The position numbers and the translations under genes are program-made. This document shows, piece after piece, positions 3,378 through 21,259 of a stretch of 64,000 bases of DNA (the stretch's first letter is position 1; each line of letters begins with the position of its first letter). A model generated the notes under the pieces. It worked only from the letters and a program-made list of their open reading frames with translations, had not been told where the DNA came from and ran no database searches. Source of the stretch: an uncultured Bacilli bacterium (GTDB lineage Bacteria > Bacillota_I > Bacilli_A > RF39 > UBA660). The stretch is taken from the NCBI GenBank assembly GCA_947626565.1, contig CANQSQ010000003.1, positions 1,518-65,517 of the forward strand, in the 5' to 3' direction.

Positions 3378-3388
3378 TAATTAATTTT

Positions 3389-3520: not shown

Positions 3521-3653
3521 TCTGGAAGTAAAAAATTGTTGTATTTATGATGAAAAAAGGAAGTTTTTAATTTTATGTATTTCTTTAAAAGATAGTTATT
3601 GAAATTAATTATTATAATGGACTTTATTATTTAAGGTGGATATAATAAAAAAA

Positions 3654-4319: not shown

Positions 4320-4539
4320 AACCGCAACATTTATTTAATGGGTGTTGCTTATATCTAATTTAATACAAATAAAAAAAATAAGAAAATGTTTAATAATGGT
4401 GGGAGAGTTGAACATAACATGCAAACATTCAATAAAAAAAAGAATGAAAAGATAGTAGATTTTAAAATAGCAATATTAGGTATCACAGGATGGTGGGCTT
4501 CACATGGACGAAGCTTTATTTTTGGAAAGGAGAATTACA

Positions 4540-5220
4540 ATGGATAATAATGTTGAAAGTATGGAAACTTCTGTAGTAGCTTTTATTACCTTAAAAAAAT
4601 GTATTTATGCTTGTCTTAAAAGATTGTTTGATATTGTATGTGCTCTTATTGGTTTAATTGTTTTAATACCAATAACTATTATCGTAAAAATTTCTTATTT
4701 ATTATCAGGTGATTTTCATTCCATTATTTTTACTCAAAGTAGAATTGGTAAAAATGGAAAAGAATTTAAATTTTATAAATTTAGAACAATGGTTCCCAAT
4801 GCTGATGAAGTTTTATTTAAACTTTTAAAAGAAGATAAAAAGGTAGCCAAAGAATATAAGAAAAATAAGAAATTAAAAAATGATCCCCGTATTACTAGAG
4901 TTGGAAAAATATTAAGAAGAACATCAGTTGATGAACTTCCTCAATTATTAAATGTTTTACTTGGCAATATGACAATGATTGGTAATCGACCATATTTACC
5001 AAGAGAAAAAGAAGATATGGGCAAATATTATAACGATATTATTAAAACTAAACCAGGAATAACAGGATATTGGCAAGTATCAGGAAAAGAGAATACTACA
5101 TTTAATAAACGTTTAGAATTAGAAAGCTTCTATTCTAAAAATTGTGGCTTAAAAATGGATATAAAAATATTTTTTAAAACATTTGGAGCTGTGATTAAAG
5201 GCCATGGAGCAGAAGAATAA
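4540..5220 (+). CDS. initiating undecaprenyl-phosphate sugar phosphotransferase (bacterial sugar transferase / small PGT family)
   Basis: One TM segment, then FKFYKFRTM, DPRITRVGKILRRTSVDELPQLLNVLLGNMTMIGNRPYLPRE and GITGYWQVSG motifs. ATG 4540 has RBS aaggag. The ORF track start at 4504 is in frame upstream. Confidence 0.85.
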   Translation: MDNNVESMETSVVAFITLKKCIYACLKRLFDIVCALIGLIVLIPITIIVKISYLLSGDFHSIIFTQSRIGKNGKEFKFYKFRTMVPNADEVLFKLLKEDKKVAKEYKKNKKLKNDPRITRVGKILRRTSVDELPQLLNVLLGNMTMIGNRPYLPREKEDMGKYYNDIIKTKPGITGYWQVSGKENTTFNKRLELESFYSKNCGLKMDIKIFFKTFGAVIKGHGAEE

Positions 5221-5407
5221 TATTATTAATGAAAAAATATTATATGAAGAAAGATTAGAATTAAAATATTATTATGTTAAAAATATAATTTTGTCTTTAG
5301 AAGTTAAGTATATTTTTGATACAACAAAAACTATCATTACAAAAATGAAGCAAAATAAAGTTAAAAAGATATGCAATTATGTATGTCTTTTTGTTAATAC
5401 AACATGA
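5204..5407 (+). pseudogene. probable relic: 3' fragment of a second sugar-phosphotransferase gene
   Basis: The 67-aa ORF contains YEERLELKYYYVKNIILSLEVKYIFDTTKTIITK. This aligns with the C-terminus of the intact upstream enzyme (FNKRLELESFYSKNCGLKMDIKIFFKTFGAVIKG). No catalytic core and no RBS. Confidence 0.45.
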
Positions 5408-5456
5408 AAAATACTAAAATATAAAAGAATATTATTAAAATAAGAGGGGTAACTAT

Positions 5457-6641
5457 ATGAAACTTTTATTTATTCAAGGCGGAAGTAAATGGAAAATCGA
5501 TACTGAAAATAATTTATATACCGATTCTAATTATAACGAGGATATTTGGAATAGATATTTGAGCTATTGTGAAGATTTAACTGTTGTTTTGAGAAAAGAA
5601 AGCAAAGTCTATTCTCCAGAAGTTGCTAAAAAGAGTTTTAATTTTTTTAATAAAAAAAATAAAAAGTTTGTTTTGTTGGATGATCTTTATAATCCTAAGA
5701 AAAACTATATTAATTTAAAAATAAGAGGTAGAATAAAAAAAGAAATTAAAAATTTAATTAGAAATTCTGATAGAATTATAATACGTTCTTTAGGAAATTA
5801 TTATACAAATTATGCTATTAAAGTTGCTAAAAAATTCAATAAAATATTTTTGGTTGAGGTAACAGGATGCATTTTTGATGGATATTGGAATCATGGCATT
5901 TTTGGCAAATTAATAGCTTTTCCACAAGAATGTAATTATAAACGACTAATTAAAAATTCTCCATATACTTTATATGTAACTGAAAGTTTTTTACAAAAAA
6001 AGTATCCAGTATTAAATAAAAAAATAAGCTGTTCTGATGTTTATGTAGAAATTGATGAAAATGCATTAAGTAATAGAGTAAATAAAATAGAGAATAAGCC
6101 TAAAAAAATAGTAATTGGAACTATTGGCCAAGTTGATTCAAAGTTAAAAGGTCAACAAAATATTATCAAAATTATAAAAAATATTGAAGAAAAATTAGAT
6201 GTAAAAATTGAATATCAATTAATAGGAAAAGGAAATAACAATAGGTTGTTAAATTTAGCAAAAAAATATAGAGTTGAAAATAGGGTTAAATTTCTAGGTC
6301 AAGTTCCTCATAAAGAAGTTTTAAAATGGTTAGATAATATTGATATATACATACATCCTAGTTATACAGAAGGACTTTGTAGATCAATTATAGAAGCAAT
6401 GAGTAGAGCTTGTCCAATAATATGTTCCGATGTTGGTGGAAATTATGAATTAGTAGATAAAGAGTATTTGTACAAAAAAAATAATTTGAGTCAATTGATT
6501 GATAAAATAGAAAAAATTTTAAAACCTGAGAATATGAGAAGTCAGGCAATAAGTAATTTTGAAAGTTCAAAAAAATTTTCTAATGAATCTTTGTCTATGC
6601 GAAGAGATGTCTTCTATAAAGAATTTATAAATAATAATTAA
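5457..6641 (+). CDS. glycosyltransferase family 4 (GT-B)
   Basis: C-terminal GT1/GT4 signature PSYTEGLCRSIIEAMSRACPIICSDVGGNYELV. RBS agagggg upstream. Confidence 0.8.
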   Translation: MKLLFIQGGSKWKIDTENNLYTDSNYNEDIWNRYLSYCEDLTVVLRKESKVYSPEVAKKSFNFFNKKNKKFVLLDDLYNPKKNYINLKIRGRIKKEIKNLIRNSDRIIIRSLGNYYTNYAIKVAKKFNKIFLVEVTGCIFDGYWNHGIFGKLIAFPQECNYKRLIKNSPYTLYVTESFLQKKYPVLNKKISCSDVYVEIDENALSNRVNKIENKPKKIVIGTIGQVDSKLKGQQNIIKIIKNIEEKLDVKIEYQLIGKGNNNRLLNLAKKYRVENRVKFLGQVPHKEVLKWLDNIDIYIHPSYTEGLCRSIIEAMSRACPIICSDVGGNYELVDKEYLYKKNNLSQLIDKIEKILKPENMRSQAISNFESSKKFSNESLSMRRDVFYKEFINNN

Positions 6642-6681
6642 ATAGAAAGGAAGAAACTATAATAAATAGTTAGGAAATATT

Positions 6682-7782
6682 ATGAAGGGTTATTTTATTT
6701 GTATTGTTGTAACACTTGTATTATCTTTTTTTGCTGACTTAAGTTTTAAAAAGGGACGAAAAAAAATTAGTATATTTTTTTTAATCTTTGCTGGTTTAGT
6801 TATGTCAGCCTTTGCAGGAGTTAGAAGTGATAGTGTTGGTAGAGACATTAAGAATTATGTATCGCCATTATTTTATAATTTTTTAAGTGGGCGTAGTATA
6901 ATTGAAGTTTATAATATTTTTGGTAATGAGATTGGATATACCATATTAGTTTATATTTTTTCACTTTCTAAAAATTTAAATTTTGTTCTATTTGGTATAG
7001 AACTTGCAGTTGTTTTTCCAATTTTAATTTATTCGTACAAAGTTAAAGATAAAATTAGTATGACTTTAAATATTTTTATTTTTTTAATGATAATGTATAG
7101 TTATTCATTTAGTATGATGCGCCAAAGTATTGCAATAAGTATTGGGATTTTATCACTTTATTATTTTAGAAATAATTGTAACAAGAAAGGATTTTTATGT
7201 ATTTTGCTTGCTTATTCATTTCATAGGACTGCAATAGCTCTAATATTTATATACTTGTTTGTTAAAAATATCTTTTACTTCAAAAAATATAATTATTTAC
7301 TACCAGTTACCTTTTTATCAGTTGTTTCATTATTTTTAATTATAATTATTATTTCATTTTTGCCTTTGAAATATTCAATCTATATAAATAATGCTAATTA
7401 TATAACATCTTTTAATATTTTAAGTTTTGTAAAAATTGCAATATGGCTTTTACCAATTTTTTTCTTAATTAATTTGATAAAAAATAAGGATTCTATAAAG
7501 TTTAAGGATTTAAAGTTGTCAATTATTTTGATTATATTTAGCATAGTAATTTATTTAATTGGAATAGAGGTACCTACATTTTCTAGATTATCACTATATT
7601 TTTCTGACATAGCTTCATTTATTTATATACCATATTTAGTAAAATGTACAAATCCAAAAGTAATTTCATTGATATCATTTTCAATTATTTTAATATTTCT
7701 TTGGTGGCATATGATTACTAATGATAAAAGTGCCCAAATTTATCCTTATAGATCTGAATTGGTTAGTTTTTTAAATGAGTAA
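6682..7782 (+). CDS. EpsG/Wzy-like polysaccharide polymerase (multi-pass membrane protein)
   Basis: About 10 predicted hydrophobic segments. RSDSVGRDIKNY and MMRQSIAISI match EpsG-family features. The locus also has a Wzx and a Wzz/BY-kinase. Confidence 0.65.
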   Translation: MKGYFICIVVTLVLSFFADLSFKKGRKKISIFFLIFAGLVMSAFAGVRSDSVGRDIKNYVSPLFYNFLSGRSIIEVYNIFGNEIGYTILVYIFSLSKNLNFVLFGIELAVVFPILIYSYKVKDKISMTLNIFIFLMIMYSYSFSMMRQSIAISIGILSLYYFRNNCNKKGFLCILLAYSFHRTAIALIFIYLFVKNIFYFKKYNYLLPVTFLSVVSLFLIIIIISFLPLKYSIYINNANYITSFNILSFVKIAIWLLPIFFLINLIKNKDSIKFKDLKLSIILIIFSIVIYLIGIEVPTFSRLSLYFSDIASFIYIPYLVKCTNPKVISLISFSIILIFLWWHMITNDKSAQIYPYRSELVSFLNE

Positions 7783-7870
7783 TTGTAGTTAGTAATTATA
7801 AGTTTAGTGAAATAATTTGAAACATAAATGATTATGCACCATGAATAAGGTGGGAAAGAGTGAGTGTAAT

Positions 7871-8968
7871 ATGAAAAAAATTTTATTTTTTATTCCAACA
7901 CTTCTTGGTGGTGGGGCAGAAAAAGTTCTTGTAAACATGGTTAATAGCATTGATAAGAGTAAGTTTGATGTAACTGTTATGACACTCTGCAATGTTGGAA
8001 TAAATATTCAATACTTAGATGATGATGTTAAATATAAATATGTTTTTAAAAGAAATATTAAAGGAATAAGACACTTGTTGAAGCTTATTAAACCTAAAAA
8101 GTTATTTAAGAAATATATCACTGATAAATATGATACCATTGTTTCTTATTTAGAAGGACCAACTACTAGAATTGTATCTGGTTGTACTAATAATACTAAA
8201 CTTATTGCTTGGATACATACTGAAAATACTAAAAGCTTTGATATTGCATTTAGAAATAAAATAGAAATGATTAATAGTTATCATGCATATGATAAAATTA
8301 TATGTGTTTCAAATGATGTCTTAAAAAGTTTTAATAATTATACTGATTGCCAATTTGAAAAAAAACTTTTAGTGATAAAGAATATTTCAAATCCATTTGA
8401 GATAATAAAGTTATCAAAAGAAAAAGTGAATTTTAAATTTTTAAATAAAATTTTTAAAATTATTATAGTTGGTAGATTAGATAAAAATAAAGCTCAAGCT
8501 AGGATGGTTAATATTATTAAAAGGTTAAATGAAGAAGGTTTTTCTATTGAACTTAATATTTTGGGTGATGGTGTTGAAAAAGAAAACATAATTAATTTAA
8601 TTAATAAGAATAATATTTCTAACATAAAGTTGTTGGGATATCAGAGTAATCCATATCCTTTCATAGCTAATTCAGATTTGTTCATATGTTGTTCACACAA
8701 AGAAGGCTTTAGTACAACAACAATAGAGGCATTAACATTAAATGTTCCCATACTTACTACTGATTGTTCTGGTATGAGAGAAATTCTTGGTAATAATGAA
8801 TATGGTCTTATTGTGCCTGATAATGATGATGAAATATACAAAGGAATTAAGAAATATATTCAAGATAAGGCTTTTTTTAAAAAAATAGAGAAAAATCAAA
8901 GTAAAAGAATTGTTAAAATGAAAGATGAATTTAAACAAAATGTTTGCTCAATTCAAAATATTTTATAA
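7871..8968 (+). CDS. glycosyltransferase family 4
   Basis: MKKILFFIPTLLGGGAEKV N-terminus and HKEGFSTTTIEALTLNVPILTTDCSGMREIL C-terminal motif. The ORF track start at 7841 is in frame upstream. Confidence 0.8.
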   Translation: MKKILFFIPTLLGGGAEKVLVNMVNSIDKSKFDVTVMTLCNVGINIQYLDDDVKYKYVFKRNIKGIRHLLKLIKPKKLFKKYITDKYDTIVSYLEGPTTRIVSGCTNNTKLIAWIHTENTKSFDIAFRNKIEMINSYHAYDKIICVSNDVLKSFNNYTDCQFEKKLLVIKNISNPFEIIKLSKEKVNFKFLNKIFKIIIVGRLDKNKAQARMVNIIKRLNEEGFSIELNILGDGVEKENIINLINKNNISNIKLLGYQSNPYPFIANSDLFICCSHKEGFSTTTIEALTLNVPILTTDCSGMREILGNNEYGLIVPDNDDEIYKGIKKYIQDKAFFKKIEKNQSKRIVKMKDEFKQNVCSIQNIL

Positions 8969-9071
8969 CTATATCAATTATTTATTTAGTTAAATAGTAA
9001 AATGCAATTTATATTAAATTAATGAAAAACAAGAGAAAATGTAATTTTTTCTTTAAAAAAATTATAAATAA

Positions 9072-9080
9072 TGATATAAT
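9072..9080 (+). promoter_or_regulatory. candidate internal extended -10 promoter (TGATATAAT)
   Basis: tgatataat lies in the 180-bp gap before the GT2 gene. Confidence 0.35.
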
Positions 9081-9147
9081 ACCAGCTATTATTATTTATG
9101 TATTCTGAAACTTATGTTTATTTGATTGTGAGAGGAATGGTATTTAA

Positions 9148-10086
9148 ATGGAAAAAGTATTGTTAAGTATTGTTATTCCAACATATAAAAGAAATGACTC
9201 TCTTTGTAGAGCAATTGATAGTGTTTTAAAAAATAAGGGAAGTTATGAAATAATTGTTGTTGATGATAATGATGAAGACTCAGTTTATAGAAAAAATAAT
9301 ATTGAGTTAATGAAAAAATATGACAATAACGATAAAGTAAAATATATTGTTCATGAAAAAAATAAAAATGGTGCGGCTGCGAGAAATACAGGTATAAGTC
9401 ATTCGAAAGGACTTTATATTACTTTTTTAGATGATGATGATGAATTTACTTATGATAGAATAACTGAAATAGAAAAAGTAATTAGAAAAGAAAAAAAAAC
9501 TGATTTTATTTTTACGGGAACCATTTTTAAAAGAAATAACAAAATTATTAGGACAAATAAAAAACTTAATGAAGAGAATCTTGATTCAAAGACACTTATT
9601 AAATTATTACTGCTTGAAGAATCATTTATTGGAACTGGCAGCAATATGATTTGTAGGAGCGAAATTGTTAAAAAGATAAATGGTTTTGATGAAACATTTA
9701 CTAGAAATCAGGATTTGGAGTTTTTGATTAGATTTTTAGAATTATCAAAAAAAAATATTTATATTGATATGAATTTAGTTATAAAGCATTTAGATGATAC
9801 TTCAAATTTTCCAACATATCAAAAAATGTTAATTGTTAAAGAAAAATTTTTGACTAAATTTTTACATTTGATAAATGAATATGATGCATGTACTATAAAA
9901 AAAATTTATACAAAAAATTATAAGACACTTTTAAGATGTGCTTATAATGATGAAAAAAGTCAACGCAAATTGGCAAGAATATATATCAAAAATAAAGGAT
10001 ATAATTTGTTCTTTTACGAATTAGAATTATCTATGAGAAGTAAATTAAAGAAAATAAAAAATTATTTGCAAAAACTTAAACATTAA
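9148..10086 (+). CDS. glycosyltransferase family 2
   Basis: LSIVIPTYKR, VVDDNDEDS and the DxD-type FLDDDDEF motifs of GT-A/GT2 enzymes. Confidence 0.85.
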   Translation: MEKVLLSIVIPTYKRNDSLCRAIDSVLKNKGSYEIIVVDDNDEDSVYRKNNIELMKKYDNNDKVKYIVHEKNKNGAAARNTGISHSKGLYITFLDDDDEFTYDRITEIEKVIRKEKKTDFIFTGTIFKRNNKIIRTNKKLNEENLDSKTLIKLLLLEESFIGTGSNMICRSEIVKKINGFDETFTRNQDLEFLIRFLELSKKNIYIDMNLVIKHLDDTSNFPTYQKMLIVKEKFLTKFLHLINEYDACTIKKIYTKNYKTLLRCAYNDEKSQRKLARIYIKNKGYNLFFYELELSMRSKLKKIKNYLQKLKH

Positions 10087-10166
10087 TGTGAGTATAGTTA
10101 TGATTGGAAAAACTATTAGTTCTACTTATCTTTTATTAAGAAAATTGAAGAAAAGGAGTATAAATT

Positions 10167-11039
10167 ATGATATCAATAAAAGAAAAAATAAAAAAATTAA
10201 TTCCAGATAAAATATTTTTAAAGATTTTATATAGGAAAATCTTTAATGAAAAATTGAATTTAAAAAATCCACAAACATTTAACGAAAAATTGCAATGGTT
10301 AAAATTGTATAATAGAAATCCTGAATATACAAAAATGGTTGATAAATATGAAGCAAAAAATTATGTTGCATCAGTTATTGGCAAAGAATATATTATTCCT
10401 ACTATAGGTTTATATGACAAGTTTGATGATATTGATTTTGATAAACTACCAAATCAATTTGTAATAAAGTGTACACATGATTGTGCAAGTACTATAATAG
10501 TAAAGGATAAAAATAATTTTGATATTAATGAGGTAAGAAAAAAAATTAATACTAATTTGAAAAAAAATTTTTTTTACAATGGACGTGAATGGGTTTATAA
10601 AAATGTAAAGCCTAGAATAATAATAGAAAAATATATGGAAGATAAACAAAATAAATCAATGAGAGATTACAAATTTTTTTGCTTCAATGGAATGGTTGAA
10701 TTATTATATATAAGTGATGATTCTCATACAAATTATCAAAAAATTGCTTTTTTTGATAAGAATTTTAACAAATTAGACTGTAAAAGGAAAGATTATAATG
10801 ATTTTAAACAATTACCAAATAAACCAAAAAATTTTGAAAAAATGAAAACTTTTTCTTCCATTCTTTCTAGAAATATACCACACGTTCGAGTTGATTGGTA
10901 TGAAATTAATGGAAAACTTTATTTTGGCGAATTAACGTTTTATACATGTAGTGGTTTTATTCCTTTTGAAGATAAAGAATGGGATAAAAAATTAGGTGAT
11001 TTGATTTCACTAGATAAGGTTGATATGCATGAGAAGTAA
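10167..11039 (+). CDS. TupA-like ATP-grasp family protein (amidoligase-type polysaccharide modification)
   Basis: N-terminal PQTFNEKLQWLKLYNRNPEYTKMVDKYEAKNYV and C-terminal VRVDWYEINGKLYFGELTF are characteristic of the ATPgrasp_TupA family. Confidence 0.7.
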   Translation: MISIKEKIKKLIPDKIFLKILYRKIFNEKLNLKNPQTFNEKLQWLKLYNRNPEYTKMVDKYEAKNYVASVIGKEYIIPTIGLYDKFDDIDFDKLPNQFVIKCTHDCASTIIVKDKNNFDINEVRKKINTNLKKNFFYNGREWVYKNVKPRIIIEKYMEDKQNKSMRDYKFFCFNGMVELLYISDDSHTNYQKIAFFDKNFNKLDCKRKDYNDFKQLPNKPKNFEKMKTFSSILSRNIPHVRVDWYEINGKLYFGELTFYTCSGFIPFEDKEWDKKLGDLISLDKVDMHEK

Positions 11040-12528
11040 AAAAGCTTTGTATAATATAGTTAGTAACTTGGCATTGCAATTAATTATTATTATTTATGGA
11101 TTTGTTGTACCAAAAATCATCATTAAGGGATATGGTTCAGATGTAAATGGTCTTGTTGTTTCTATTACACAATTTTTAACATATATTACTTTATTAGAAT
11201 CTGGTTTTGGCCCAGTTATTAAGTCTATATTATATAAACCAATTTCTAAAAACCAAAAAGATAAAATTGTAAATATTTTAAAATCAGCAGAAAAATTTTT
11301 TAGAAATATTGCAAAAATATTTATAGTTTATATTATTATTTTAAGTTTTATTTATCCTATATTGGTAAACAATCAATTTTCTGCCTTATATACTGTATCA
11401 TTAATTTTAATCATTTCAATAACAACTTTTTTTGAATATTATTTTGGAATTACTTACCGAATTTACTTGGAGGCTGAGCAGAAAAGCTATATTATTTCGT
11501 TGATTCAAATTATATTATATATAATCAGTATATTAGTAATATTAATTAGTAGTTACTTTAATTTGCCAATACATATTTTAAAATTAATTAGTGGTTTGAT
11601 TTTTATCTTAAAACCGCTTATGCAAAATTTTTATATAAGAAAACATTATCAAATTAATTTAAATACTGCAAAAGAAAACTACAATATAAAAAACAAATGG
11701 GATGGCTTGGCTCAACATATTGCATTTGTTATTCATACAAATACAGACATAACGATTTTAACAATTTTTAGCACATTGAAAGAGGTATCAGTATACTCAA
11801 CTTATTTATTAGTTGTAAAAGGAATAAAACAATTAATTCAAGCAATATCTTCGGGAATTGAGTCGTCATTTGGTGATATGATAGCAAGGAATGAAATAGA
11901 AAACTTAAATAAAAAATTTCATTTATATGAAATTATATATTTTTCATTGTGTACTGTTGTTTTTACATGCACTATAATTTTAATTACACCATTCATAGCT
12001 GTTTATACTAAAGGAATATCTGACGCAAATTATATTAGATATTCTTTTGGATACTTGTTAGTTATAAGTGAATATATTTGGGCAATTAGATTACCATATA
12101 GTACTATTACAATGGTGGCTGGACATTTTAAAGAGACTAGAAATGGAGCTTGGATAGAAGCTTTTACTAATATTTTTTTATCAATAATATTAGTATGGAA
12201 ATATGGAATTATAGGTGTTACCATAGGAACAATTGTTGCTATGGTAATAAGAACTTTAGAATTTGTTTATCACACTAATAAATATATATTAAAAAGGAAC
12301 TTATTTACTAGTGTAAAGAAAATCCTGATAATTATTGTCGAAACAATTGCCATTATATTATTAAGCAAATATATTCCTTGCTCTTTAAGTTTGTCATTTT
12401 TAAATTGGATTTTTAGAAGCTGCATTACATGTTTTGTAGCAATAGTTACTGTATTAATTATTAATTGTTTGTTTTATAAAAAAGAAATTAAAGACATTTT
12501 TAATAGTATATTTAAAAAAAGAAAATAA
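11029..12528 (+). CDS. Wzx-type oligosaccharide flippase (MOP superfamily polysaccharide biosynthesis protein)
   Basis: About 500 aa, hydrophobic throughout (12-14 segments), located inside the cps operon. Overlaps the stop of the upstream gene. Confidence 0.8.
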   Translation: MRSKKALYNIVSNLALQLIIIIYGFVVPKIIIKGYGSDVNGLVVSITQFLTYITLLESGFGPVIKSILYKPISKNQKDKIVNILKSAEKFFRNIAKIFIVYIIILSFIYPILVNNQFSALYTVSLILIISITTFFEYYFGITYRIYLEAEQKSYIISLIQIILYIISILVILISSYFNLPIHILKLISGLIFILKPLMQNFYIRKHYQINLNTAKENYNIKNKWDGLAQHIAFVIHTNTDITILTIFSTLKEVSVYSTYLLVVKGIKQLIQAISSGIESSFGDMIARNEIENLNKKFHLYEIIYFSLCTVVFTCTIILITPFIAVYTKGISDANYIRYSFGYLLVISEYIWAIRLPYSTITMVAGHFKETRNGAWIEAFTNIFLSIILVWKYGIIGVTIGTIVAMVIRTLEFVYHTNKYILKRNLFTSVKKILIIIVETIAIILLSKYIPCSLSLSFLNWIFRSCITCFVAIVTVLIINCLFYKKEIKDIFNSIFKKRK

Positions 12529-12565
12529 GTATTTAGAATTAAAATTTTTTGAAGGTGATGATTCA

Positions 12566-13131
12566 ATGATAAAAAATAAAAAAGATTATTTAGAATATTT
12601 GAAAAGAGATAAAATAGCTTTAGGAAGGACAGCTAAATTTCCTAGTATGTTTGATTATATTTGGAAATATGAAATTTTATTAAGAAAATGTGAATATCTA
12701 AAAAATTGTGGGGGGGGGTATATAATAAAATATTATTTAAATATTTTATTATAAAGAGAAATAAATTAGGAATAAAGCTAGGTTTTAGTATACCATTAAA
12801 TGTTTTTGACTCTGGTTTAAGTATTGCTCATATAGGACCAATAATTGTTAATGGAGGTGCCAAGATTGGAAAAAATTGTCGCATTCACGTTGGAGTTAAT
12901 ATAGGAACTAAAGCTGGTTTTGAGCATGATGCACCAATACTTGGGGATAATATATACATTGGACCGGGAGCAAAATTATTTGGAAAAATACATATAGCTG
13001 ATAACATAGCTATAGGGGCTAATGCTGTTGTTAATAAAAGTTTTGCTGAAACAGGAATTTCAATAGCTGGTGTTCCAGCTAAAAAAATTAGTAATAAAGG
13101 TACAAAAAATATAATTAAGTTAAATAAATAG
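12566..13131 (+). pseudogene. hexapeptide-repeat O-acetyltransferase (serine-acetyltransferase-like), split by a frameshift at a G9 tract
   Basis: ORF 12566-12754 encodes the family's N-terminal helical part (DYLEYLKRDKIALG...LLRKCEYLKN). ORF 12706-13131 encodes the left-handed beta-helix part (GLSIAHIGPIIVNGGAKIGKNCRIHVGVNIG...). The two frames meet inside GGGGGGGGG, and adding one G would fuse them. Confidence 0.8.
12710..12718. repeat. G9 homopolymer (slipped-strand phase-variation candidate)
   Basis: Read directly: tgtgggggggggta. It is the only long G/C homopolymer I noticed in this very AT-rich window. Confidence 0.95.
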
Positions 13132-13143
13132 GAGGATTTTTTT

Positions 13144-14310
13144 GTGAAAATAGCAGTTGCAGGAACAGGTTATGTAGGATTATCACTTGCTACATTGCTT
13201 AGCCAAAATAATGAAGTTATGGCACTTGATGTCATAGAAGAAAAAGTTAATATGATTAATAATAGGATATCACCTATTAAAGACGAGTATATCGAAAAAT
13301 TTTTTAAAGAAAAACAATTAAATTTAAAAGCAACTCTTGATTATGAAGAAGCTTTTAATAATGCTAAATTCATTATAATAAGTACCCCCACGAATTATGA
13401 TGATGAACTAAACTATTTTGATACTTCTTCCGTTGAAGATATAATTGAAAAAGTTATTAGTATGAATATTGATACAACTATTGTTATTAAATCAACTATA
13501 CCAGTAGGTTTTGTTGAATCTATGAAAAAGAAATATCATATTGATAATATTATGTTTTCACCTGAATTCTTACGTGAAGGAAAAGCTTTATATGATAACT
13601 TATATCCATCTAGAATAATAGTTGGATCTACTGATGATAAAGCTCATTTATTTGCTTCAATTCTAAAGGAAGCTTCTTTAAAAGAAGAGGTTCCTATTTT
13701 ATATATGAATTCAACAGAAGCTGAAGCAGTTAAGTTATTTGCTAATACTTATTTAGCTTTAAGAGTATCTTATTTTAATGAATTAGACACCTATGCTGAA
13801 ATTAAAAATCTAAATACAAAAGATATTATTGATGGAGTTTGTTTAGATCCAAGAATAGGAACTCATTATAATAATCCATCATTTGGTTATGGAGGGTATT
13901 GTTTACCAAAAGATACTAAGCAATTATTAGCTAATTATAAAGATGTACCTGAAAATTTAATAGAAGCTATAGTTAAGGCTAATGATACAAGAAAAGATCA
14001 CATTGTTAATATGGTTTTGACAAAAAAACCTAAAGTCGTAGGAATTTATAGATTGACAATGAAAACTGATTCTGATAATTTTAGAGCTAGTGCTATTCAG
14101 GGTATAATTGAACGTTTAAAGAATAAAAATATTGAGATTATTATATATGAACCAACTTTAAATATTAATATTTTTAATGATTGTTTAGTAGTTAATGATT
14201 TTTCACAATTTTCAGAGAAAGCTGATTTAATTTTGGCTAATAGGCTAGATAGTAAAATTAAGATTTTAAAAGATAAAATATATACGAGAGACATTTTTTC
14301 AAGAGATTAA
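13144..14310 (+). CDS. ugd: UDP-glucose 6-dehydrogenase
   Basis: GTG start with RBS aggagg. Rossmann MKIAVAGTGYVGLS, catalytic-Cys motif GYGGYCLPKDTKQL, FSPEFLREG. Confidence 0.9.
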   Translation: MKIAVAGTGYVGLSLATLLSQNNEVMALDVIEEKVNMINNRISPIKDEYIEKFFKEKQLNLKATLDYEEAFNNAKFIIISTPTNYDDELNYFDTSSVEDIIEKVISMNIDTTIVIKSTIPVGFVESMKKKYHIDNIMFSPEFLREGKALYDNLYPSRIIVGSTDDKAHLFASILKEASLKEEVPILYMNSTEAEAVKLFANTYLALRVSYFNELDTYAEIKNLNTKDIIDGVCLDPRIGTHYNNPSFGYGGYCLPKDTKQLLANYKDVPENLIEAIVKANDTRKDHIVNMVLTKKPKVVGIYRLTMKTDSDNFRASAIQGIIERLKNKNIEIIIYEPTLNINIFNDCLVVNDFSQFSEKADLILANRLDSKIKILKDKIYTRDIFSRD

Positions 14311-14391
14311 ATTTAAATTATAAAGTCAAAATACAAATATTACATAATATTTGATTGAAAATGTAATGAATTGAAAGTGGTGATTTTAAAA

Positions 14392-15435
14392 ATGAAAGAA
14401 ATTAAAAGTATTAATTTTATAAAATTCTTTTCTTTTTTGTCAATTTTTTTGTTACATACTAATAATATAATTGATTTAAAAATAAATTCTTTGTCAAGAT
14501 TTGGAGTAGAAATATTCATTGTTTTATCTGGCTTCCTAATGTATTACAATTATTATGATAAGTTTGACAATACTGGTGAAAAGATACCCTTTTTTTTAAA
14601 AAAACTTAAAAAATTTTATCCATTATTTATAATTTCTTTATTAATTAAATTGCCTGTTACTTTGTATAAATACTATTTGGAATTTAATGGATTAAATTTT
14701 CTATTTTTTACCAATTCAGTATTAAGACTAATTCCATCGCTATTTTTATTTCAAGCTTTTATACCTAGTGAAAAGTATTATTTTGCTTACAATGGTGTTG
14801 CTTGGTTTTTAGATGTTTTGTTCTTTTGTTATTTGTTTACACCATTTCTTGTAGGGCAACTAAAAAAAATAAAGAATAAAATTTTAGCTTCTGTAATTGT
14901 CTTTTTAATACAATGCTTTTACATCCTTATATTAAATAAATATCAAATTAATGAATACTGGTATTATATTTTTCCACTTTCTAGAATATTTGACTATATT
15001 CAAGGAATGTTACTATGCAGTATTTATCTTCATTTAAAAAAATGTAAACAAAATATGAAACCATATATATATATATATACAATAATAGAAGCAATAACTA
15101 TATTTTTAATTTTTGTAGCTTTCTTTAATGATTGGTTTCATTATGATATATTTGTCTTATTAATGTCTCTTATCACAATTTTAGTATTTGTAATATGCAA
15201 AGGTCACATATCTAATTTTTTATCTAAATCTAGAATATTAAATAAATTTGGTAAACTTAATTTGGAATTTTATTTGTTACATCAGCCTATTATAAAATAT
15301 TATGAATTTATTTATCAAAAACTTAATATAATTAATCCATATTTATCTGTTTTTATTATATTTGTCATTTTTGTTAATTTATATTTAATTTCGGTAATAA
15401 TTCATGAAAAACTTTTTACCAAAAAAATTAAATGA
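14392..15435 (+). CDS. membrane acyltransferase family 3 (O-acetyltransferase)
   Basis: Multi-pass membrane protein with FGVEIFIVLSGFLM and WFLDVLFFCY motifs typical of acyltransferase_3. The ORF track start at 14371 is in frame upstream. Stop TGA. Confidence 0.75.
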   Translation: MKEIKSINFIKFFSFLSIFLLHTNNIIDLKINSLSRFGVEIFIVLSGFLMYYNYYDKFDNTGEKIPFFLKKLKKFYPLFIISLLIKLPVTLYKYYLEFNGLNFLFFTNSVLRLIPSLFLFQAFIPSEKYYFAYNGVAWFLDVLFFCYLFTPFLVGQLKKIKNKILASVIVFLIQCFYILILNKYQINEYWYYIFPLSRIFDYIQGMLLCSIYLHLKKCKQNMKPYIYIYTIIEAITIFLIFVAFFNDWFHYDIFVLLMSLITILVFVICKGHISNFLSKSRILNKFGKLNLEFYLLHQPIIKYYEFIYQKLNIINPYLSVFIIFVIFVNLYLISVIIHEKLFTKKIK

Positions 15436-15479
15436 TAAAATGTTCTGTTAAATATTTAATAATTTTTAGAATTTTGCCA

Positions 15480-15488
15480 TGATATAAT
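15480..15488 (+). promoter_or_regulatory. candidate internal extended -10 promoter (TGATATAAT)
   Basis: tgatataat lies in the 110-bp gap upstream of the GT4 gene at 15546. Confidence 0.35.
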
Positions 15489-15545
15489 ATGCTTGATTAT
15501 GTTGATTATTGTTTCATTATATAAAATTAGAAAGGAATATTATTT

Positions 15546-16658
15546 ATGAAAAAGCAACCTCTTATAATTGCTCAAATAATGGGTAAATGGAATGGTGGTG
15601 GTGTTGAAGCAGTTGTTATGAATTATTATAGACATTTAGATAGAAATAACATACAATTTGATTTTATTTGTGATAATGATTCAACTAATATACCATATGA
15701 AGAAATAAAAAGGTTAGGTGGCAAAGTTTTTTTAGTACCACCTTATCAGAAAATATTCGAATATAATAAAGAATTATTTAAAATATTTAAAAAAGAAAAG
15801 TATAAAATAGTTCATTCACACATAAATACTTTGTCAATATTTCCATTGAGAATAGCAAAAAAAGCAAATATACCAGTGCGTATAGCTCATAGTCATTCGA
15901 CCTCTAATAAAAAAGAATGGAAAAGGAATTTAATAAAGCAATTATTAAGACCATTTTCAAAAATGTATGCAACTGATTATATGTGCTGCAGTGAGTTTGC
16001 TGGAAGATGGCTTTTTGGAGATAAAGAATTTGACAAGGGAAATGTATATCTTTTAAACAATGCAATAGATGTAGATAAATTTAAATATGATGAAAAGATA
16101 AGAAAAATGAAAAGAGAAGAATTAGGCATAAATAAGGATACTCTAGTGATAGGTCATATTGGAAGATTTGTTTCTCAAAAGAACCATACATTTTTAATTG
16201 ACATTTTTAAAGAAATACATAGACAAAATAAAAATACAACACTTTTATTGGTTGGACAAGGACCCCTTAAGAAGACAATAGAAGAAAAAGTAAAAGTATT
16301 GAACTTAGAAAATAGTGTTATATTTTTAGGACAAAGAGAAGATGTTAATGATTTGTACCAAACTATGGACGTATTTGTATTGCCAAGCCTTTATGAGGGG
16401 CTTCCTGTTGTTGGAGTTGAAGCTCAAGCGAGTGGTCTTTTATGCATGTTTTCTACTGACATGACAAGAGAAGTAAAAATATTAGATACATCTATTTTTA
16501 TACCTTTGGAAAAGTCAAGCAGTTATTGGGCAAAAAAAATTATGGATAATTATACTGCAAATAAAAGAAAAGATGAAAGAAAAGCTGTTACTATGGCTAA
16601 TTTTAGTATTAATGAAGAAGCACAAAAACTAGTAGAAAAATATAAATCTTTAATATAG
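15546..16658 (+). CDS. glycosyltransferase family 4
   Basis: GRFVSQKNH and PSLYEGLPVVGVEAQASGL motifs of GT-B/GT4 enzymes. Confidence 0.85.
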   Translation: MKKQPLIIAQIMGKWNGGGVEAVVMNYYRHLDRNNIQFDFICDNDSTNIPYEEIKRLGGKVFLVPPYQKIFEYNKELFKIFKKEKYKIVHSHINTLSIFPLRIAKKANIPVRIAHSHSTSNKKEWKRNLIKQLLRPFSKMYATDYMCCSEFAGRWLFGDKEFDKGNVYLLNNAIDVDKFKYDEKIRKMKREELGINKDTLVIGHIGRFVSQKNHTFLIDIFKEIHRQNKNTTLLLVGQGPLKKTIEEKVKVLNLENSVIFLGQREDVNDLYQTMDVFVLPSLYEGLPVVGVEAQASGLLCMFSTDMTREVKILDTSIFIPLEKSSSYWAKKIMDNYTANKRKDERKAVTMANFSINEEAQKLVEKYKSLI

Positions 16659-16670
16659 GAGTTATTCTTT

Positions 16671-19043
16671 ATGAAAAAAGTGGGAATTGTATCGTGTTAT
16701 TTTAAAGAAAATTATGGAAGTGTCCTTCAAGCATATGCAACTCAAAGATTTTTGAATAATAATAATGTACAAAATGAAACTATTGAAATAGAAAAAAATA
16801 TTGATTTTAAGAATGGCAAAAAAAAGTTTTATCTTTCTCAAATTATGAATTTTAACTTTTTAAAAACAAAGTTTGGAATGGTAAAATTTAAAATAGATAA
16901 AAAAATCAAGAAAAATTTAAAACAAAATATTTTGATAAGAAATAATGAATTTAAAAAATTTAAAAATAATTTTAGTTTATCCAAAAGTTGTAACACTTAT
17001 AATGAATTGACGGAGTTATCAAAAAATAATTATTCAGACGTTATAGTTGGTAGTGATCAACTATGGCTACCAGTAAATGTTGTTGCTGATTACTATACTT
17101 TGAATTGGGTACCAAATGATATAAATAAAATTTCTTATGCCACAAGTTTTGGAATTTCTGAAATACCCAATAAATATCAAAAATTATATAAAAAGTTTTT
17201 GAAAAGAATTAATTATTTGTCAGTAAGAGAGGAAACTGGTGTAAATTTAGTAAAAAAAATGGCAAATAAAAATGCTAAATTAGTGTGTGATCCTGTATTC
17301 CTTTTAACTAAAGAAAAATGGGATGAGATAGCACCTAAAGAAAGAGTTATAAAAGATAAATATATTTTATGTTACTTTTTAGGAAATAATATTAATCATA
17401 GAAAGTTTGCAGAAAAACTAAAAGAAGCAACTGGCTATAAAATAGTTTCAATAAATCATTGTGATGAATATGTAAAATATTCAGACAAATTTGCTGATAT
17501 TATACCATACGATGTTGGTCCAGATAAATGGTTGGATTTAATAAAAAATGCTGAATATGTATGCACTGATTCTTTTCATTGTACTGCCTTTTCAATAATT
17601 TACAATAAAGAATTTTTTGATTTTAGAAGATATAGTTCTAAAAATAGGAATTCCACTAATTCAAGAATTGATTCATTACTAAACTCATTAAAAATAGATA
17701 AAAATAGAATTTTAGCTGGGACTGAGGATGTAATAGATATTTTAAATCTTAAAATAGATTACGAAAAAGTAAACAAAAAATTAGATGAAATTTCTAAAAC
17801 TTCAGGAGAATGGTTATTAAATTCTATTAAGTGGAAAAAAGAAGAAAGTAAATATATAAAAATTACTAATAAAGAATTTTGTACTGGATGTACTGCTTGT
17901 AAAAATATTTGTCCCAAAGATGCAATAGAAATGATAAGGGATGAAGAAGGTTTTTTATATCCAAAGGTAAATGAGCAAAATTGTATAAAATGTGGTTTAT
18001 GCAAGAAAATCTGCCCAGTATTAAATAAGCTATTAAGAGAAGATTTCAAACAGGAAGGATATATTTTTCAGCATAGTAATAAAAAAATAAGAAAAGAAAG
18101 TACAAGTGGTGGAGCTTTCACTGCAATATCTGAATATATATTAAAAAATGGAGGAGTTGTTTATGGTGTTGGCTTTGATTCTAACTTTAATGTTAAACAT
18201 ATAAGAATTACACAAGAAAAAGATTTATATAAATTTAGAAATTCTAAATATGTCCAGAGTGATCCCAATTCTACATTTTTACAAGTATTAGATGATTTGA
18301 AAAAGAACTTGTTAGTTTGTTATAGTGGCACGGCTTGTCAGATTGAAGGATTAAAGGCATTTTTAAGGAAAGATTATGAAAATCTTATTACTGTTGATGT
18401 AGTTTGTAGGGCAGTTCCTTCACCATTATTATGGAAAAAATATTTTGATTATAGGAATAATCAAAAAAATATTAAAAAAATATATTTTAGAGAAAAATTT
18501 TATGGTTATAAATATTCCAATTTAAGTATTTATAATGAAAATGACTGTATTTATCATAACGGTATAGATACGGATCCATATCTACGAGCGTTTTTTTCTA
18601 ACATTGCATGTAGACCATCGTGTTATAATTGTCATTTTAAGGAACAATTGCATAAGTCTGATTTTACAATATGGGACTGCTTTGAAGTAGATAAATTTTC
18701 CAAAGATTTTGATGATGACTTAGGTACTACGAGAGTGCTTATTAATAGTCAAAGAGGCAGGAAAATTTTTGACAATATTAAAATAGAACATAAATACAAA
18801 GCAATTGATGTTAATATATTGGTAAATAATTTTTATCAAATGTTTAATTCTATAAAATATAATTCTGAAAGAGAGCAATTTTTTGAAGATTTAAACAATG
18901 CTGATTTTAACTCCGTTATTAACAAGTATTTTCCAAATAATATTAAGTGTATGATAGAAAAATATTCTAGAAAAATATTAATATTTATTGGAATATATAA
19001 ACCACTATTAAAATTGGGAAGAAAATTAAGAAGGCGTGACTAA
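16671..19043 (+). CDS. fusion protein: polysaccharide pyruvyl transferase + 2x[4Fe-4S] ferredoxin + coenzyme F420 hydrogenase/dehydrogenase beta (FrhB)-like domain
   Basis: The N-terminal ~390 aa have pyruvyl-transferase features (VGIVSCYFKENYGSVLQAYATQ, VGSDQLW). The centre is CTGCTACKNICPKDAI...CIKCGLCKKICPV (two CX2CX2CX3CP clusters). The C-terminal ~330 aa resemble the FrhB-like family (SGGAFTAISEY, GTACQIEGL, VDVVCRAVPS). Confidence 0.7.
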   Translation: MKKVGIVSCYFKENYGSVLQAYATQRFLNNNNVQNETIEIEKNIDFKNGKKKFYLSQIMNFNFLKTKFGMVKFKIDKKIKKNLKQNILIRNNEFKKFKNNFSLSKSCNTYNELTELSKNNYSDVIVGSDQLWLPVNVVADYYTLNWVPNDINKISYATSFGISEIPNKYQKLYKKFLKRINYLSVREETGVNLVKKMANKNAKLVCDPVFLLTKEKWDEIAPKERVIKDKYILCYFLGNNINHRKFAEKLKEATGYKIVSINHCDEYVKYSDKFADIIPYDVGPDKWLDLIKNAEYVCTDSFHCTAFSIIYNKEFFDFRRYSSKNRNSTNSRIDSLLNSLKIDKNRILAGTEDVIDILNLKIDYEKVNKKLDEISKTSGEWLLNSIKWKKEESKYIKITNKEFCTGCTACKNICPKDAIEMIRDEEGFLYPKVNEQNCIKCGLCKKICPVLNKLLREDFKQEGYIFQHSNKKIRKESTSGGAFTAISEYILKNGGVVYGVGFDSNFNVKHIRITQEKDLYKFRNSKYVQSDPNSTFLQVLDDLKKNLLVCYSGTACQIEGLKAFLRKDYENLITVDVVCRAVPSPLLWKKYFDYRNNQKNIKKIYFREKFYGYKYSNLSIYNENDCIYHNGIDTDPYLRAFFSNIACRPSCYNCHFKEQLHKSDFTIWDCFEVDKFSKDFDDDLGTTRVLINSQRGRKIFDNIKIEHKYKAIDVNILVNNFYQMFNSIKYNSEREQFFEDLNNADFNSVINKYFPNNIKCMIEKYSRKILIFIGIYKPLLKLGRKLRRRD

Positions 19044-19475
19044 ACTATTTATTAAAAGCAGTACTATAAAAACATGTGATAAAAGTTATATGTAAATTAC
19101 AAAATTTAAAATTTGATGAGTTTGAATAATAATAGGATATAAGATATTAAATTATTAAAAAACTTTTTTTAGCATAGCATAAATTAATTTAAAAGAGAGA
19201 AAATAAATATTCTCTGTCAAATAGTGTTGATAGACAATAAAAATGATAAATGAATTAAAATATAGAGGATGATTAAAGTCATCCTTGAATAATTTTTTTG
19301 ATATAAAATGGTTTAACTTTGATAACATTCATAGGTGGCTTTTAATTCTTGATTAGTATTTATCATAAAAGTAACCATTTTTTTGAGATATAATTTTCTT
19401 AAAATATTTATAGTAATGATTAATATTAATTATATAGGTGCTTATTTAGGCACTTTTTATTTTGTAAATTTTTAG

Positions 19476-19657
19476 TACTACTGGCTATAGAGCCAGTGGT
19501 TGATAAAAAATACTACTGGTTCTACAGCCAGTATGAAATAGATATTATGTACTGGTCTTAGAGCCAGTATTGATAAATAAATTTGGTACTGGCTCTGTAA
19601 CCAGTAGTGAATAGATAAATGTGGTACTGGTTGTAGAGCCAGTACTTTTGTTTTTTG
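19476..19657. repeat. five tandem ~35-39-bp units, each with a TACTGGYT-loop-AGCCAGTA hairpin; last unit followed by a T-run
   Basis: Units start at 19476, 19511, 19550, 19587 and 19625. Stems are ACTGGCT/AGCCAGT, TACTGGTT/AGCCAGTA, TACTGGT/GCCAGTA, TACTGG.T/A.CCAGTA and GTACTGGTT/AGCCAGTAC. Linkers share tgaWtaRataaat. Non-coding. Confidence 0.9.
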
Positions 19658-19751
19658 TAATTATTGTTATTTGTAATAAAACTTAATCTTAATTTTAAAT
19701 ATTTTGTACTAATTTAGTTTCTTACTTTATTTAAAAATAAATTCTCTTTAC

Positions 19752-19777
19752 ATATATTAACGTTTATGTTAATATAT
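19752..19777. promoter_or_regulatory. candidate operator: 10-bp inverted repeat ATATATTAAC-n6-GTTAATATAT upstream of the toxin-antitoxin pair
   Basis: A perfect 10/10 inverted repeat 55 bp upstream of the toxin ATG, overlapping AT-rich -10-like hexamers. The downstream HTH protein is a plausible binder. Confidence 0.4.
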
Positions 19778-19832
19778 ATTTATAAATTAGAAAAATTTTT
19801 GAAAGGAGAAAAGTAGGGAGGTTTTACAACTA

Positions 19833-20168
19833 ATGAATATAATATATACTAAGAGTTATGATAGAATGGCTAAAGGTCTGAAGAAACATATTAATGAAAA
19901 GAATACTTTAGAAGTTATAAAAGAATTAATTGAAAATTCAAGTGATTTTGCTGAATTAAAAAACAATCCTATAGCTAAAAGATATAATTATGAATGACTA
20001 AAACACCAATTAAATGAATTTTGGTCTTTTTATCTTGATAAAGATGGTGGAGTAATTAGACTTATAGTAAAACCTACTGAAAATACTGATGAGTTATATT
20101 TAGTATTTGTGAGCTTTGATCACTATGAAGATTTTTCTAAGGAAAAGGTGATTTATTATGATGAATAA
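19833..20168 (+). pseudogene. RelE/HigB-like toxin interrupted by an in-frame TGA (19995-19997)
   Basis: Translation: MNIIYTKSYDRMAKGLKKHINEKNTLEVIKELIENSSDFAELKNNPIAKRYNYE*LKHQLNEFWSFYLDKDGGVIRLIVKPTENTDELYLVFVSFDHYEDFSKEKVIYYDE. RBS gggagg. It overlaps the start of the downstream HTH gene by 11 nt, which is a toxin-first HigBA-type order. Confidence 0.55.
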
Positions 20169-21186
20169 ATTTGGTAGTCAATTGGGTGAATTTTTAAATG
20201 ATAATAATATTAGTATTAAAGAATTTGCTAATAGAATTAATACTTCTCAAAAAAATCTGATTGATATTTTAAAAGGAAAAATAGAGTTATCTCAAAATAT
20301 GATTTATAATATTTCTTTTGTTACTAGTATTCCAGTTAATTATATTGAGAATGTAGAATCTAATTATAAATTAGAAGTAACACTAAAAAAATTTCTTGAA
20401 GAAAGAAATATGACGGTAAGAGAATTTATTAATAAATTTAGTTATAAAGAATTTTCTAAAAAATATAATTTTAAATTTAGTGATGAAAGAAATGATTATA
20501 GTATAGCTAAAGGCATATTAAAGTATTTAAGAATAACTGATCCTAGTCTGTTGTACAAAAAAGATAATACTATTTTTTATAAAAGTAAAAATGACAAGAT
20601 TGAATTGTTAGTTTTATGGTTGGAAAGATGCTACAAGATTGTATCTGAACAAAAAATTAGTGAATATAAGAAAGAAAATATTGATATTGTGGTTGACTAC
20701 ATAAGAGATTGTGCAGCTAATGATGAGTTTAATGAAAAAAAGTTAATTACTAAATTTAATGATAATGGTATATATTTGGCAATTGAAGATGATTTAAAGG
20801 GTTCAAAAATTAGAGGAGCTTTTAAAGTGTTAAATGATAAACCAGCTATTTATATTACTAGAAAACATAAAAGATATGCCGATGTTTACTTTGCTTTGTT
20901 ACATGAGTTAGCTCATTGTAAGAGTGATTTTAATAGGGCAAAAAATGGATCACTTGTGTCATTTCAAGATGAAACGATGGATGATGATTATGAAATTAGA
21001 GCAGATAAGACAGCATTTAATTGGATGGTAGATGATCAATTATATAATAAAATAAAATATAATTATAATAATATTGACAAATTTGAAGTTGTAAAATCAT
21101 TCTTTGTATATAGATTAGCAAATGATAAAATTATCAGTTATGCTTCTAAATTATATCAGGAAAATAATAAAATAATAGTAAAGTAA
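20158..21186 (+). CDS. XRE-family HTH fused to ImmA/IrrE-type zinc metallopeptidase domain (HigA-like partner)
   Basis: N-terminal HTH (ISIKEFANRINTSQKNLIDILKGK). C-terminal HEXXH motif in YFALLHELAHCKSD, typical of the COG2856/ImmA family. Confidence 0.8.
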   Translation: MMNKFGSQLGEFLNDNNISIKEFANRINTSQKNLIDILKGKIELSQNMIYNISFVTSIPVNYIENVESNYKLEVTLKKFLEERNMTVREFINKFSYKEFSKKYNFKFSDERNDYSIAKGILKYLRITDPSLLYKKDNTIFYKSKNDKIELLVLWLERCYKIVSEQKISEYKKENIDIVVDYIRDCAANDEFNEKKLITKFNDNGIYLAIEDDLKGSKIRGAFKVLNDKPAIYITRKHKRYADVYFALLHELAHCKSDFNRAKNGSLVSFQDETMDDDYEIRADKTAFNWMVDDQLYNKIKYNYNNIDKFEVVKSFFVYRLANDKIISYASKLYQENNKIIVK

Positions 21187-21214
21187 AACTTTCTTTTCAA
21201 TTTTATATAAAGTA

Positions 21215-21223
21215 TGTTATAAT
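21215..21223 (+). promoter_or_regulatory. candidate extended -10 promoter (TGTTATAAT) for the LCP gene
   Basis: tgttataat lies 37 bp upstream of ATG 21260. Confidence 0.4.
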
Positions 21224-21259
21224 CATTTTATGATAAAATAGATGATGAGAGGTTTTTAT

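Follow-up and report, generated by a model that had tools for sequence, protein, structure and literature searches.

The polysialic acid capsule of Escherichia coli K1 is modified by NeuO, an O-acetyltransferase of the left-handed beta-helix (LbH) fold that is encoded by prophage CUS-3, and slippage at a repeat within its coding region decides whether the full-length protein is translated (PMC3046976). The repeat is a heptanucleotide variable-number tandem repeat (VNTR; AAGACTC, 2–93 copies) that begins two nucleotides after the start codon and encodes residues outside the catalytic core (PMC3046976). In Streptococcus pneumoniae serogroup 15, the O-acetyltransferase WciZ carries a (TA)n repeat near position 413, with 15B and 15C as the reversible acetylation variants (PMC5028725). 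The AT-rich Campylobacter jejuni has intragenic G/C homopolymers of ~8–11 nucleotides in genes that modify its capsular polysaccharide (CPS) and its lipooligosaccharide (LOS), with stochastic ON/OFF expression and several combinations per locus (PMC8355987, PMC8437040). An acetyltransferase gene in the PSI/9 locus of Bacteroides fragilis is broken by an extra base in a run of C residues, for which the authors discuss possible slippage variation (PMC3090145). Here, we describe a predicted polysaccharide acetyltransferase gene that is split by a run of nine G residues (G9), within a 64,000-nucleotide stretch of contig CANQSQ010000003.1 from an uncultured Bacilli bacterium, the whole of which is referred to below as the window. 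It is likely, in our judgment, that the gene is a contingency switch in which slipped-strand mispairing turns translation of a capsule or exopolysaccharide (EPS) acetyltransferase ON and OFF, the window allele being OFF and a single G away from ON. No description of a poly-G switch in the CysE-like acetyltransferase family to which this gene belongs was found in the literature.

The tract lies on the + strand, and its flanks read GAA TAT CTA AAA AAT TGT GGGGGGGGG TATATAATAAAA. The parts of the gene are as follows.

12552..12558, + strand: Shine-Dalgarno-like AAGGTGA, as read from the sequence, 7 nucleotides upstream of the ATG at 12566
12566..13131, + strand: whole acetyltransferase gene, frameshift-split in the window allele (G10 would give 188 residues and G7 187)
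12566..12754, + strand: OFF-state open reading frame (ORF) of 62 residues with an ATG start, comprising helices 1 and 2, GGG and an 11-residue out-of-frame tail (YIIKYYLNILL)
12710..12718, + strand: G9 tract, the proposed slippage site, encoding a Gly-Gly-Gly turn from helix 2 to helix 3
12719..13131, + strand: helix 3 and the catalytic domain (left-handed beta-helix), read in the other frame in the window allele, with no internal stop and the SIAHIG histidine kept

In the G9 allele the frame is lost after codon 51 and translation would end at a premature TAA (12752–12754), 36 nucleotides past the tract, yielding a 62-residue product devoid of the catalytic beta-helix. A second ORF of 141 residues (12706–13131), whose nominal TTG start falls within the tract flank, continues to the TAG stop codon at 13129–13131. 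The initial annotation, made from the sequence alone, had placed the change of frame between these two ORFs exactly at the tract, and our reading of the sequence agrees in every coordinate. It had also proposed that inserting one G or deleting two would restore a continuous gene of 189 codons. Both changes do produce one ORF, but the codon count is true of G10 only, which gives a single 188-residue ORF (189 codons including the stop) containing LKNCGGGVYNKILFKYF. When tract lengths were varied in silico, G7, G10 and G13 gave products of 187, 188 and 189 residues, respectively, whereas G8, G9, G11 and G12 were out of frame and gave 52–63 residues.

The tract is exceptional for its surroundings. 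It is the sole run of six or more G or C residues in the window (26.2% GC), which otherwise has three G5 and two C5 runs, and the number of G/C runs of at least nine expected by chance in 64 kb is 0.005–0.012. GGG is the rarest glycine codon in the window (53 of 903, 5.9%), and three successive GGG codons have a probability of ~2e-4. No further candidate for a switch repeat emerged from a tandem-repeat scan of the genes of the surrounding capsular polysaccharide (cps) locus.

Family searches and alignments were run with the repaired (G10) window protein, which aligned over its full length to more than 6,900 homologues; these are typically 184–190 residues long and often annotated as "serine acetyltransferase". 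It retained 44 of the 44 invariant columns of an alignment of 18 sequences (alignment A1), on both sides of the frameshift. The Pfam Hexapep match (E = 2.5e-5, 24.2 bits) fell just below the 27-bit cut-off, and the best NCBIfam matches, EpsC, CysE, NeuD/PglB, WbbJ and WcaB, were all far below their curated cut-offs (52.6 against 210.65 bits for TIGR01172 cysE, 61.6 against 150 bits for NF041874 EpsC and ~30 against 195 bits for WcaB). Because of these low scores we do not regard the protein as a bona fide serine acetyltransferase or as an equivalog of CysE or EpsC. For P0001, the intact orthologue closest to the window protein, the AlphaFold (AF2) model (pLDDT 95.1) has helices at residues 5–19, 31–48 and 52–72 followed by the beta-helix, and places the GGG in the loop 49–51 between the second and third of these helices. 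The best Protein Data Bank matches in Foldseek were CysE serine acetyltransferases (e.g. 4hzc, 6wye and 1ssq), with E ~1e-8, TM scores of 0.66–0.74, ~20% identity and a probability of 1.0. His-89, in the SIAHIG motif, aligns with the histidine of the LDH ("DH") motif in Neisseria gonorrhoeae CysE (6wye); both His-89 and His-108 are invariant in alignment A1, and His-89 is so in alignment A3 as well. By family and predicted structure, the protein is a CysE/EpsC/WcaB-like hexapeptide (LbH) acetyltransferase with a shortened helical domain, and the earlier description of a serine-acetyltransferase-like enzyme with an N-terminal helical part and a hexapeptide beta-helix is thus upheld by the family matches, the AF2 model and Foldseek alike.

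The tract also occurs, at different lengths, in relatives of the gene. One source of such relatives was a metagenome scan with a degenerate pattern, in which the codons of the conserved K-C-E-Y-x-x-N had to precede a run of seven or more G. The alleles are listed by lineage, together with those of the window strain.

Lineage A1 (window strain): ON, none seen; OFF, G9 in the window, L012 and L013
Lineage A2 (sister species, 84% amino acid identity to the window gene): ON, G10 in L003 and L018; OFF, G9 in L015 and L016, G11 in L014
Lineage B (metagenome scan): ON, G8 in L004; OFF, G9 in L011
Lineage C (metagenome scan): ON, G9 in L010; OFF, G7 in L005
Lineage D (same subfamily as lineage C): ON, C+G9 in L024–L026 (P0248); OFF, C+G10 in L008 and L019–L021, CA+G7 in L006

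In the sister species the tract sits at the same codons as in the window gene, the G10 alleles read N-T-G-G-G-Y and are ON, and both OFF frames are present as G9 and G11, all among contigs from different samples that are 99.5–99.7% mutually identical. The comparison of tract lengths in orthologues that the initial annotation had suggested therefore came out in favor of variation, with G9, G10 and G11 at no less than 99.5% identity in this species and ON and OFF lengths in three further lineages. The two lineage B contigs have no mismatch over 2,820 bp and differ by a single indel, which is the tract; L011 ends 5 nucleotides past the tract and, being identical to L004, is presumed OFF. In lineage D, a 9.6-kb stretch common to L006 and L008 is 98% identical and contains just two indels, one of them the tract. 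One of the C+G10 OFF contigs was covered ~29-fold, the OFF product (P0251) belonging to a cluster of 31 sequences. In all four lineages the residues encoded by the tract fall in the same three to four alignment columns, following an invariant RKCEY..N motif, and at the aligned site the tractless relatives P0003, P0023 and P0249 have K/N-x-G. Of the four sequences closest to the lineage C/D protein in a 5.8-billion-protein database, three are shortened fragments. One of these is P0249 (L022, L023), which we considered as an OFF fragment and rejected, since there is no tract at the site and its short length has another cause.

Other candidates were set aside. L001, from a Methanoregula metagenome-assembled genome (45% identity), and L002 (32%) are distant relatives only and have no tract at the site. 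L007 and L009, also from the metagenome scan, are chance matches with 49% GC and no ORF. L017, at 1.2x coverage, has unrelated sequence joined exactly at the tract; the assembly is probably broken or chimeric, and the contig was left out.

To gauge selection, the repaired window gene was compared with its L003 orthologue from the sister species. The two have diverged at synonymous sites (dS = 1.09, third-position identity 61%), and the dN/dS of 0.126 for the whole gene falls to 0.088 in the part downstream of the frameshift; the window gene has no further stops and retains all family-invariant residues on both sides of the frameshift. The low dN/dS in a pair whose codons have otherwise diverged argues that, through most of its past, the gene was functional. 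The tract codons depart from this divergence: all three are GGG in both genes, whereas among the other aligned Gly-Gly codon pairs 4 of 19 share a codon and none is GGG in both. The persistence of three GGG codons at this dS indicates that the run of G residues has been preserved as nucleotide sequence, beyond the need of the protein, in a genome that avoids GGG. Because the tract codes for a tight inter-helix turn in the AF2 model, the turn probably tolerates two, three or four glycines, a tolerance that would fit G7, G10 and G13 all being usable ON states.

We looked at the window's own strain with the same question in mind. Two further assemblies hold the locus, L012 (ERZ27249643; 99.94% identical over 1,569 bp) and L013 (ERZ27249635; 100% identical over 2,272 bp); both have G9, and each contains the identical 62-residue OFF-state ORF. 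The earlier statement that the gene is currently OFF is accordingly true of three of three assemblies, and G9, being reproduced in three assemblies, is real rather than an assembly error. The claim of a phase-variable switch is supported by the frame logic and, above all, by the length polymorphism of the relatives, but no length variation was seen in this strain.

Several observations weigh against a switch that is in use in the window strain. Beyond the uniform G9 of its three assemblies, where no length polymorphism was found, the products expected from G6, G7, G8, G10, G11, G12 and G13 were absent, by exact look-up, from a collection of 15 billion proteins, so that OFF could be fixed in this strain and its reversibility there is taken from relatives. 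L012, L013 and most sister-lineage contigs have a coverage of 1.2–4.3x, at which calls of homopolymer length are less reliable, and consensus assemblies hide mixtures of tract lengths within a population. The recurrence of the tract at the same loop is in part ascertained by design, as the scan pattern required a tract there. Finally, Campylobacter lacks MutS/MutL mismatch repair, and slippage is probably slower here than in that mismatch-repair-deficient organism because an intact MutS is encoded in the window. This MutS1 (31343–33904) has domains I–V and is followed by the gene for the exonuclease VII large subunit, not by mutL; MutL was not seen within the 64-kb window. For context, a cluster look-up with four housekeeping proteins found no relatives above 90% identity, and a search of genome contigs with the repaired protein found no conspecific genome.

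These points bear most directly on the possibility that the tract slipped once to G9 and that the gene has since been a permanently lost, fixed pseudogene, its tract being a mutational hotspot and not a switch in use. The uniform G9 of the strain and the lack of any other tract state of the exact window gene on record would both follow from such a loss, and a second acyltransferase of the locus, the Acyl_transf_3 protein at 14371–15435, could have made the enzyme dispensable. Against this, the gene bears no second lesion: both halves are open, the invariant residues are kept, and the dN/dS downstream of the frameshift is 0.09. G9 remains one slip from ON, the closely similar alleles of the sister species include the ON state and both OFF frames, and the three G9 contigs (99.94–100% identical, probably from one study) may all stem from a single clone. 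We consider permanent loss unlikely. Another explanation, in which the true tract is G10 and the gene intact, would draw on the general difficulty of sequencing homopolymers and on the ~2x coverage of L012 and L013, but G9 was obtained independently in three assemblies. Moreover, 19 of the 19 A/T runs of eight or more in coding sequence of the window sit within intact long ORFs, which argues that the assembly is not generally prone to homopolymer frameshifts, and lineage D has four contigs with the OFF length G10 (the ~29x contig among them) and three others with the ON length G9. An artefact of sequencing or assembly is highly improbable.

A different kind of alternative accepts the tract as real and denies that it sets a state. 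RNA polymerase is known to slip on long homopolymers, and by transcriptional slippage or ribosomal frameshifting a G9 gene might still yield some full-length enzyme, the tract then setting a level of expression; OFF lengths are common in several lineages, and would be less costly if OFF were leaky. However, both OFF frames (+1 and −1) occur in the relatives, and a single programmed frameshift would not rescue both. No frameshift-stimulating signal turned up, although no search was aimed at one, and classical poly-G contingency genes behave in an ON/OFF manner. Bypass of this kind strikes us as very unlikely, and we retain the contingency switch as the probable explanation.

Under the switch that we propose, slipped-strand mispairing at replication would add or remove single G residues at high frequency, and a clonal population would come to mix ON and OFF cells. 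ON cells would acetylate, with acetyl-CoA as the donor, a sugar of the capsule or EPS repeat unit, whereas OFF cells would make an unacetylated polymer. The resulting surface heterogeneity could serve as a bet-hedge against phages or host antibodies, and the sampled strain would be predominantly OFF. Genes downstream would continue to be expressed, as ugd, the next gene, appears to have a strong ribosome-binding site of its own.

The setting of the gene is consistent with such a role. It lies within a cluster of genes, all on one strand, of a kind typical for Gram-positive Wzy-dependent capsule/EPS loci, in which Pfam matches (PF02706, PF13614, PF19567, PF02397, PF14897 and PF03816) identify a Wzz/CpsD/CpsB module, an initiating transferase, a polymerase and an LCP protein. 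We grouped 1223..3377 (+ strand) as a cpsC/D/B-like regulatory module, 4504..12528 (+ strand) as upstream genes and 13144..22783 (+ strand) as downstream genes.

1223–1909, + strand: Wzz/CpsC chain-length determinant
1909–2646, + strand: CpsD-like AAA_31 tyrosine-kinase-like ATPase
2646–3377, + strand: CpsB/CapC phosphatase
4504–5220, + strand: initiating sugar transferase
5457–6641, + strand: family 4 glycosyltransferase (GT4)
6682–7782, + strand: EpsG-type polymerase
7841–8968, + strand: GT4
9148–10086, + strand: family 2 glycosyltransferase (GT2)
10167–11039, + strand: TupA-like ATP-grasp protein
11020–12528, + strand: 502-residue polytopic membrane protein with no Pfam match, a probable flippase by position and hydrophobic sequence
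13144–14310, + strand: UDP-glucose dehydrogenase (ugd), with its own AGGAGG Shine-Dalgarno sequence at 13130–13135 overlapping the acetyltransferase stop codon
14371–15435, + strand: membrane acyltransferase, Acyl_transf_3
15546–16658, + strand: GT4
16671–19043, + strand: pyruvyl transferase fused to FrhB/ferredoxin-like domains
21242–22783, + strand: LCP family protein

The initial annotation had called the locus capsular, and the inventory is that of a capsule-type locus from Wzz, the CpsD-like kinase, CpsB and the initiating transferase through the EpsG polymerase, the glycosyltransferases, ugd and the pyruvyl transferase to LCP. This context points to a sugar as the acceptor; family and context together suggest that the reaction is an O-acetylation and that the polymer is a capsule rather than another secreted or wall polysaccharide. 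With AGGAGG as a ribosome-binding site of its own, ugd should escape any strong polar effect of the OFF state, and we judged it unlikely that the real function of the tract is a polar effect on the downstream genes.

Some further features of the locus deserve mention. The Acyl_transf_3 protein is a second, membrane-bound acyltransferase two genes downstream of the switch gene, and the polymer may carry two different acyl decorations, one of them switchable. In the 790-residue product of the gene at 16671–19043, a polysaccharide pyruvyl transferase (PF04230) is fused to 4Fe-4S ferredoxin and FrhB/FdhB-like domains. An interval of 1.1 kb with no credible ORF (3377–4504) separates cpsB from the initiating transferase gene; a 45-residue minus-strand ORF (3910–4047) within it has no Pfam match, and the interval may represent a regulatory or promoter region, or what is left of a gene. 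Five tandem copies of a hairpin-forming palindromic unit of ~20 nucleotides, TACTGGYTNTAGAGCCAGTA, spaced at 35–38 nucleotides, occupy 19476–19644, in the 1.1-kb non-coding gap from the pyruvyl transferase gene to a gene for an HTH-domain protein (20158–21186), and could be a terminator array, a repetitive extragenic palindromic (REP)-like array or binding sites of a regulator. After the cps genes, the region 20158–27999 encodes a 342-residue HTH protein with a HELAH motif, the LCP protein, a 502-residue protein with no Pfam match and a 1201-residue YobI-like P-loop NTPase (PF20693), and may be a small defence or conflict island. An Rfam scan of the window matched a T-box leader and tRNA only, with no match near the G9 tract; the T-box leader (94.4 bits, 43950–44123), which fits Firmicutes, precedes two small ORFs (44157–45265) and then alaS (45271–47961). 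The alanyl-tRNA synthetase (AlaRS) shares 76–77% identity with proteins of metagenome-assembled genomes labeled "Bacilli bacterium" or "Mycoplasmatota bacterium", and 87% with its best match among unnamed sequences.

The loci of the relatives show variation of their own. In lineage C, the DUF1919-like and Acyl_transf_3-like neighbors of the acetyltransferase each carry a poly-G/C tract, C10 in L005 (234–243 and 425–434) and C8 in L010 (4017–4024 and 4206–4213), and as these also differ in length, several genes of the locus vary independently of one another. In lineage D, a G8/G9 tract lies near the 3' end of the DUF1919 gene that follows the acetyltransferase (2637–2644 in L024 and L025, 2637–2645 in L026, 2581–2589 in L019 and L020) and leads to products of 198, 202 or 216 residues, which may amount to switching of the C-terminal sequence. 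Gene order differs between the sister species and the window, L003 having an SDR gene, a TPP enzyme gene, the acetyltransferase and a GT2 gene, and the window the membrane protein, the acetyltransferase and ugd. Megablast detected no nucleotide similarity between L003 and the window outside the acetyltransferase gene, and it may be that gene and tract travel together, as a module, from one polysaccharide locus to another.

More tentatively, we suggest that the inter-helix turn after the invariant R-K-C-E-Y-x-x-N motif could be a recurrent, built-in site for poly-G switches, and that capsule phase variation of this kind could be widespread, and so far undescribed, in uncultured commensal Firmicutes/Bacilli. 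This wider reading draws on at least four lineages, 45–84% identical, from organisms of 24–42% GC and with differing registers (ON = G10, G8, G9 and G9), and on the further variable poly-G tracts in neighboring DUF1919 and acyltransferase genes of some loci. Discussions of phase variation in gut commensals usually center on invertible promoters. Poly-G contingency loci belong to the textbook knowledge on Campylobacter, Neisseria and Haemophilus, and are, to our knowledge, poorly documented in low-GC Bacilli that are uncultured and in other Firmicutes that live as commensals. The present gene provides a concrete example in which polymorphism of tract length is already visible across public metagenomes. 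It suggests that acetylation of surface polysaccharides in such organisms is stochastically heterogeneous, which is relevant to phage-host dynamics and to recognition by antibodies. It also matters for genome annotation, where such genes routinely appear as pseudogenes or as two separate fragments.

Among the systems introduced above, the B. fragilis PSI/9 gene differs in that its C run is 4–5 nucleotides long and was observed once, whereas the present tracts are 7–11 nucleotides long with repeated length polymorphism. The CysE enzymes (4hzc, 6wye and 1ssq) share with the window protein an N-terminal helical domain followed by the LbH and the aligned "DH"-motif histidine, but identity is ~20%, the N-terminal domain of the window protein is much shorter (three helices), and its gene sits in a polysaccharide locus. 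NeuO resembles the proposed switch as an LbH acetyltransferase governed by a coding-region repeat whose residues lie away from the catalytic core. The two differ in that the window gene has neither a heptanucleotide VNTR after its start codon nor a prophage as carrier, its repeat being a G homopolymer at codons 49–51, in the inter-helix turn, and its neighbors chromosomal cps genes; OatWY, which is related to NeuO, matches the window protein in the LbH part only (E = 1e-4), a similarity at the superfamily level. WciZ, likened here by its description and not by protein comparison, offers a parallel from the Wzy-type cps locus of a Gram-positive organism, where a short intragenic repeat frameshifts an acetyltransferase, its repeat being the dinucleotide (TA)n in place of a G homopolymer. 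Campylobacter belongs to another phylum and switches other gene families, and the window has a single tract in 64 kb together with an intact MutS. Both have intragenic poly-G/C tracts in genes that modify surface polysaccharides, and lineages C and D, like Campylobacter, have several variable tracts per locus. The mechanism itself is not new.

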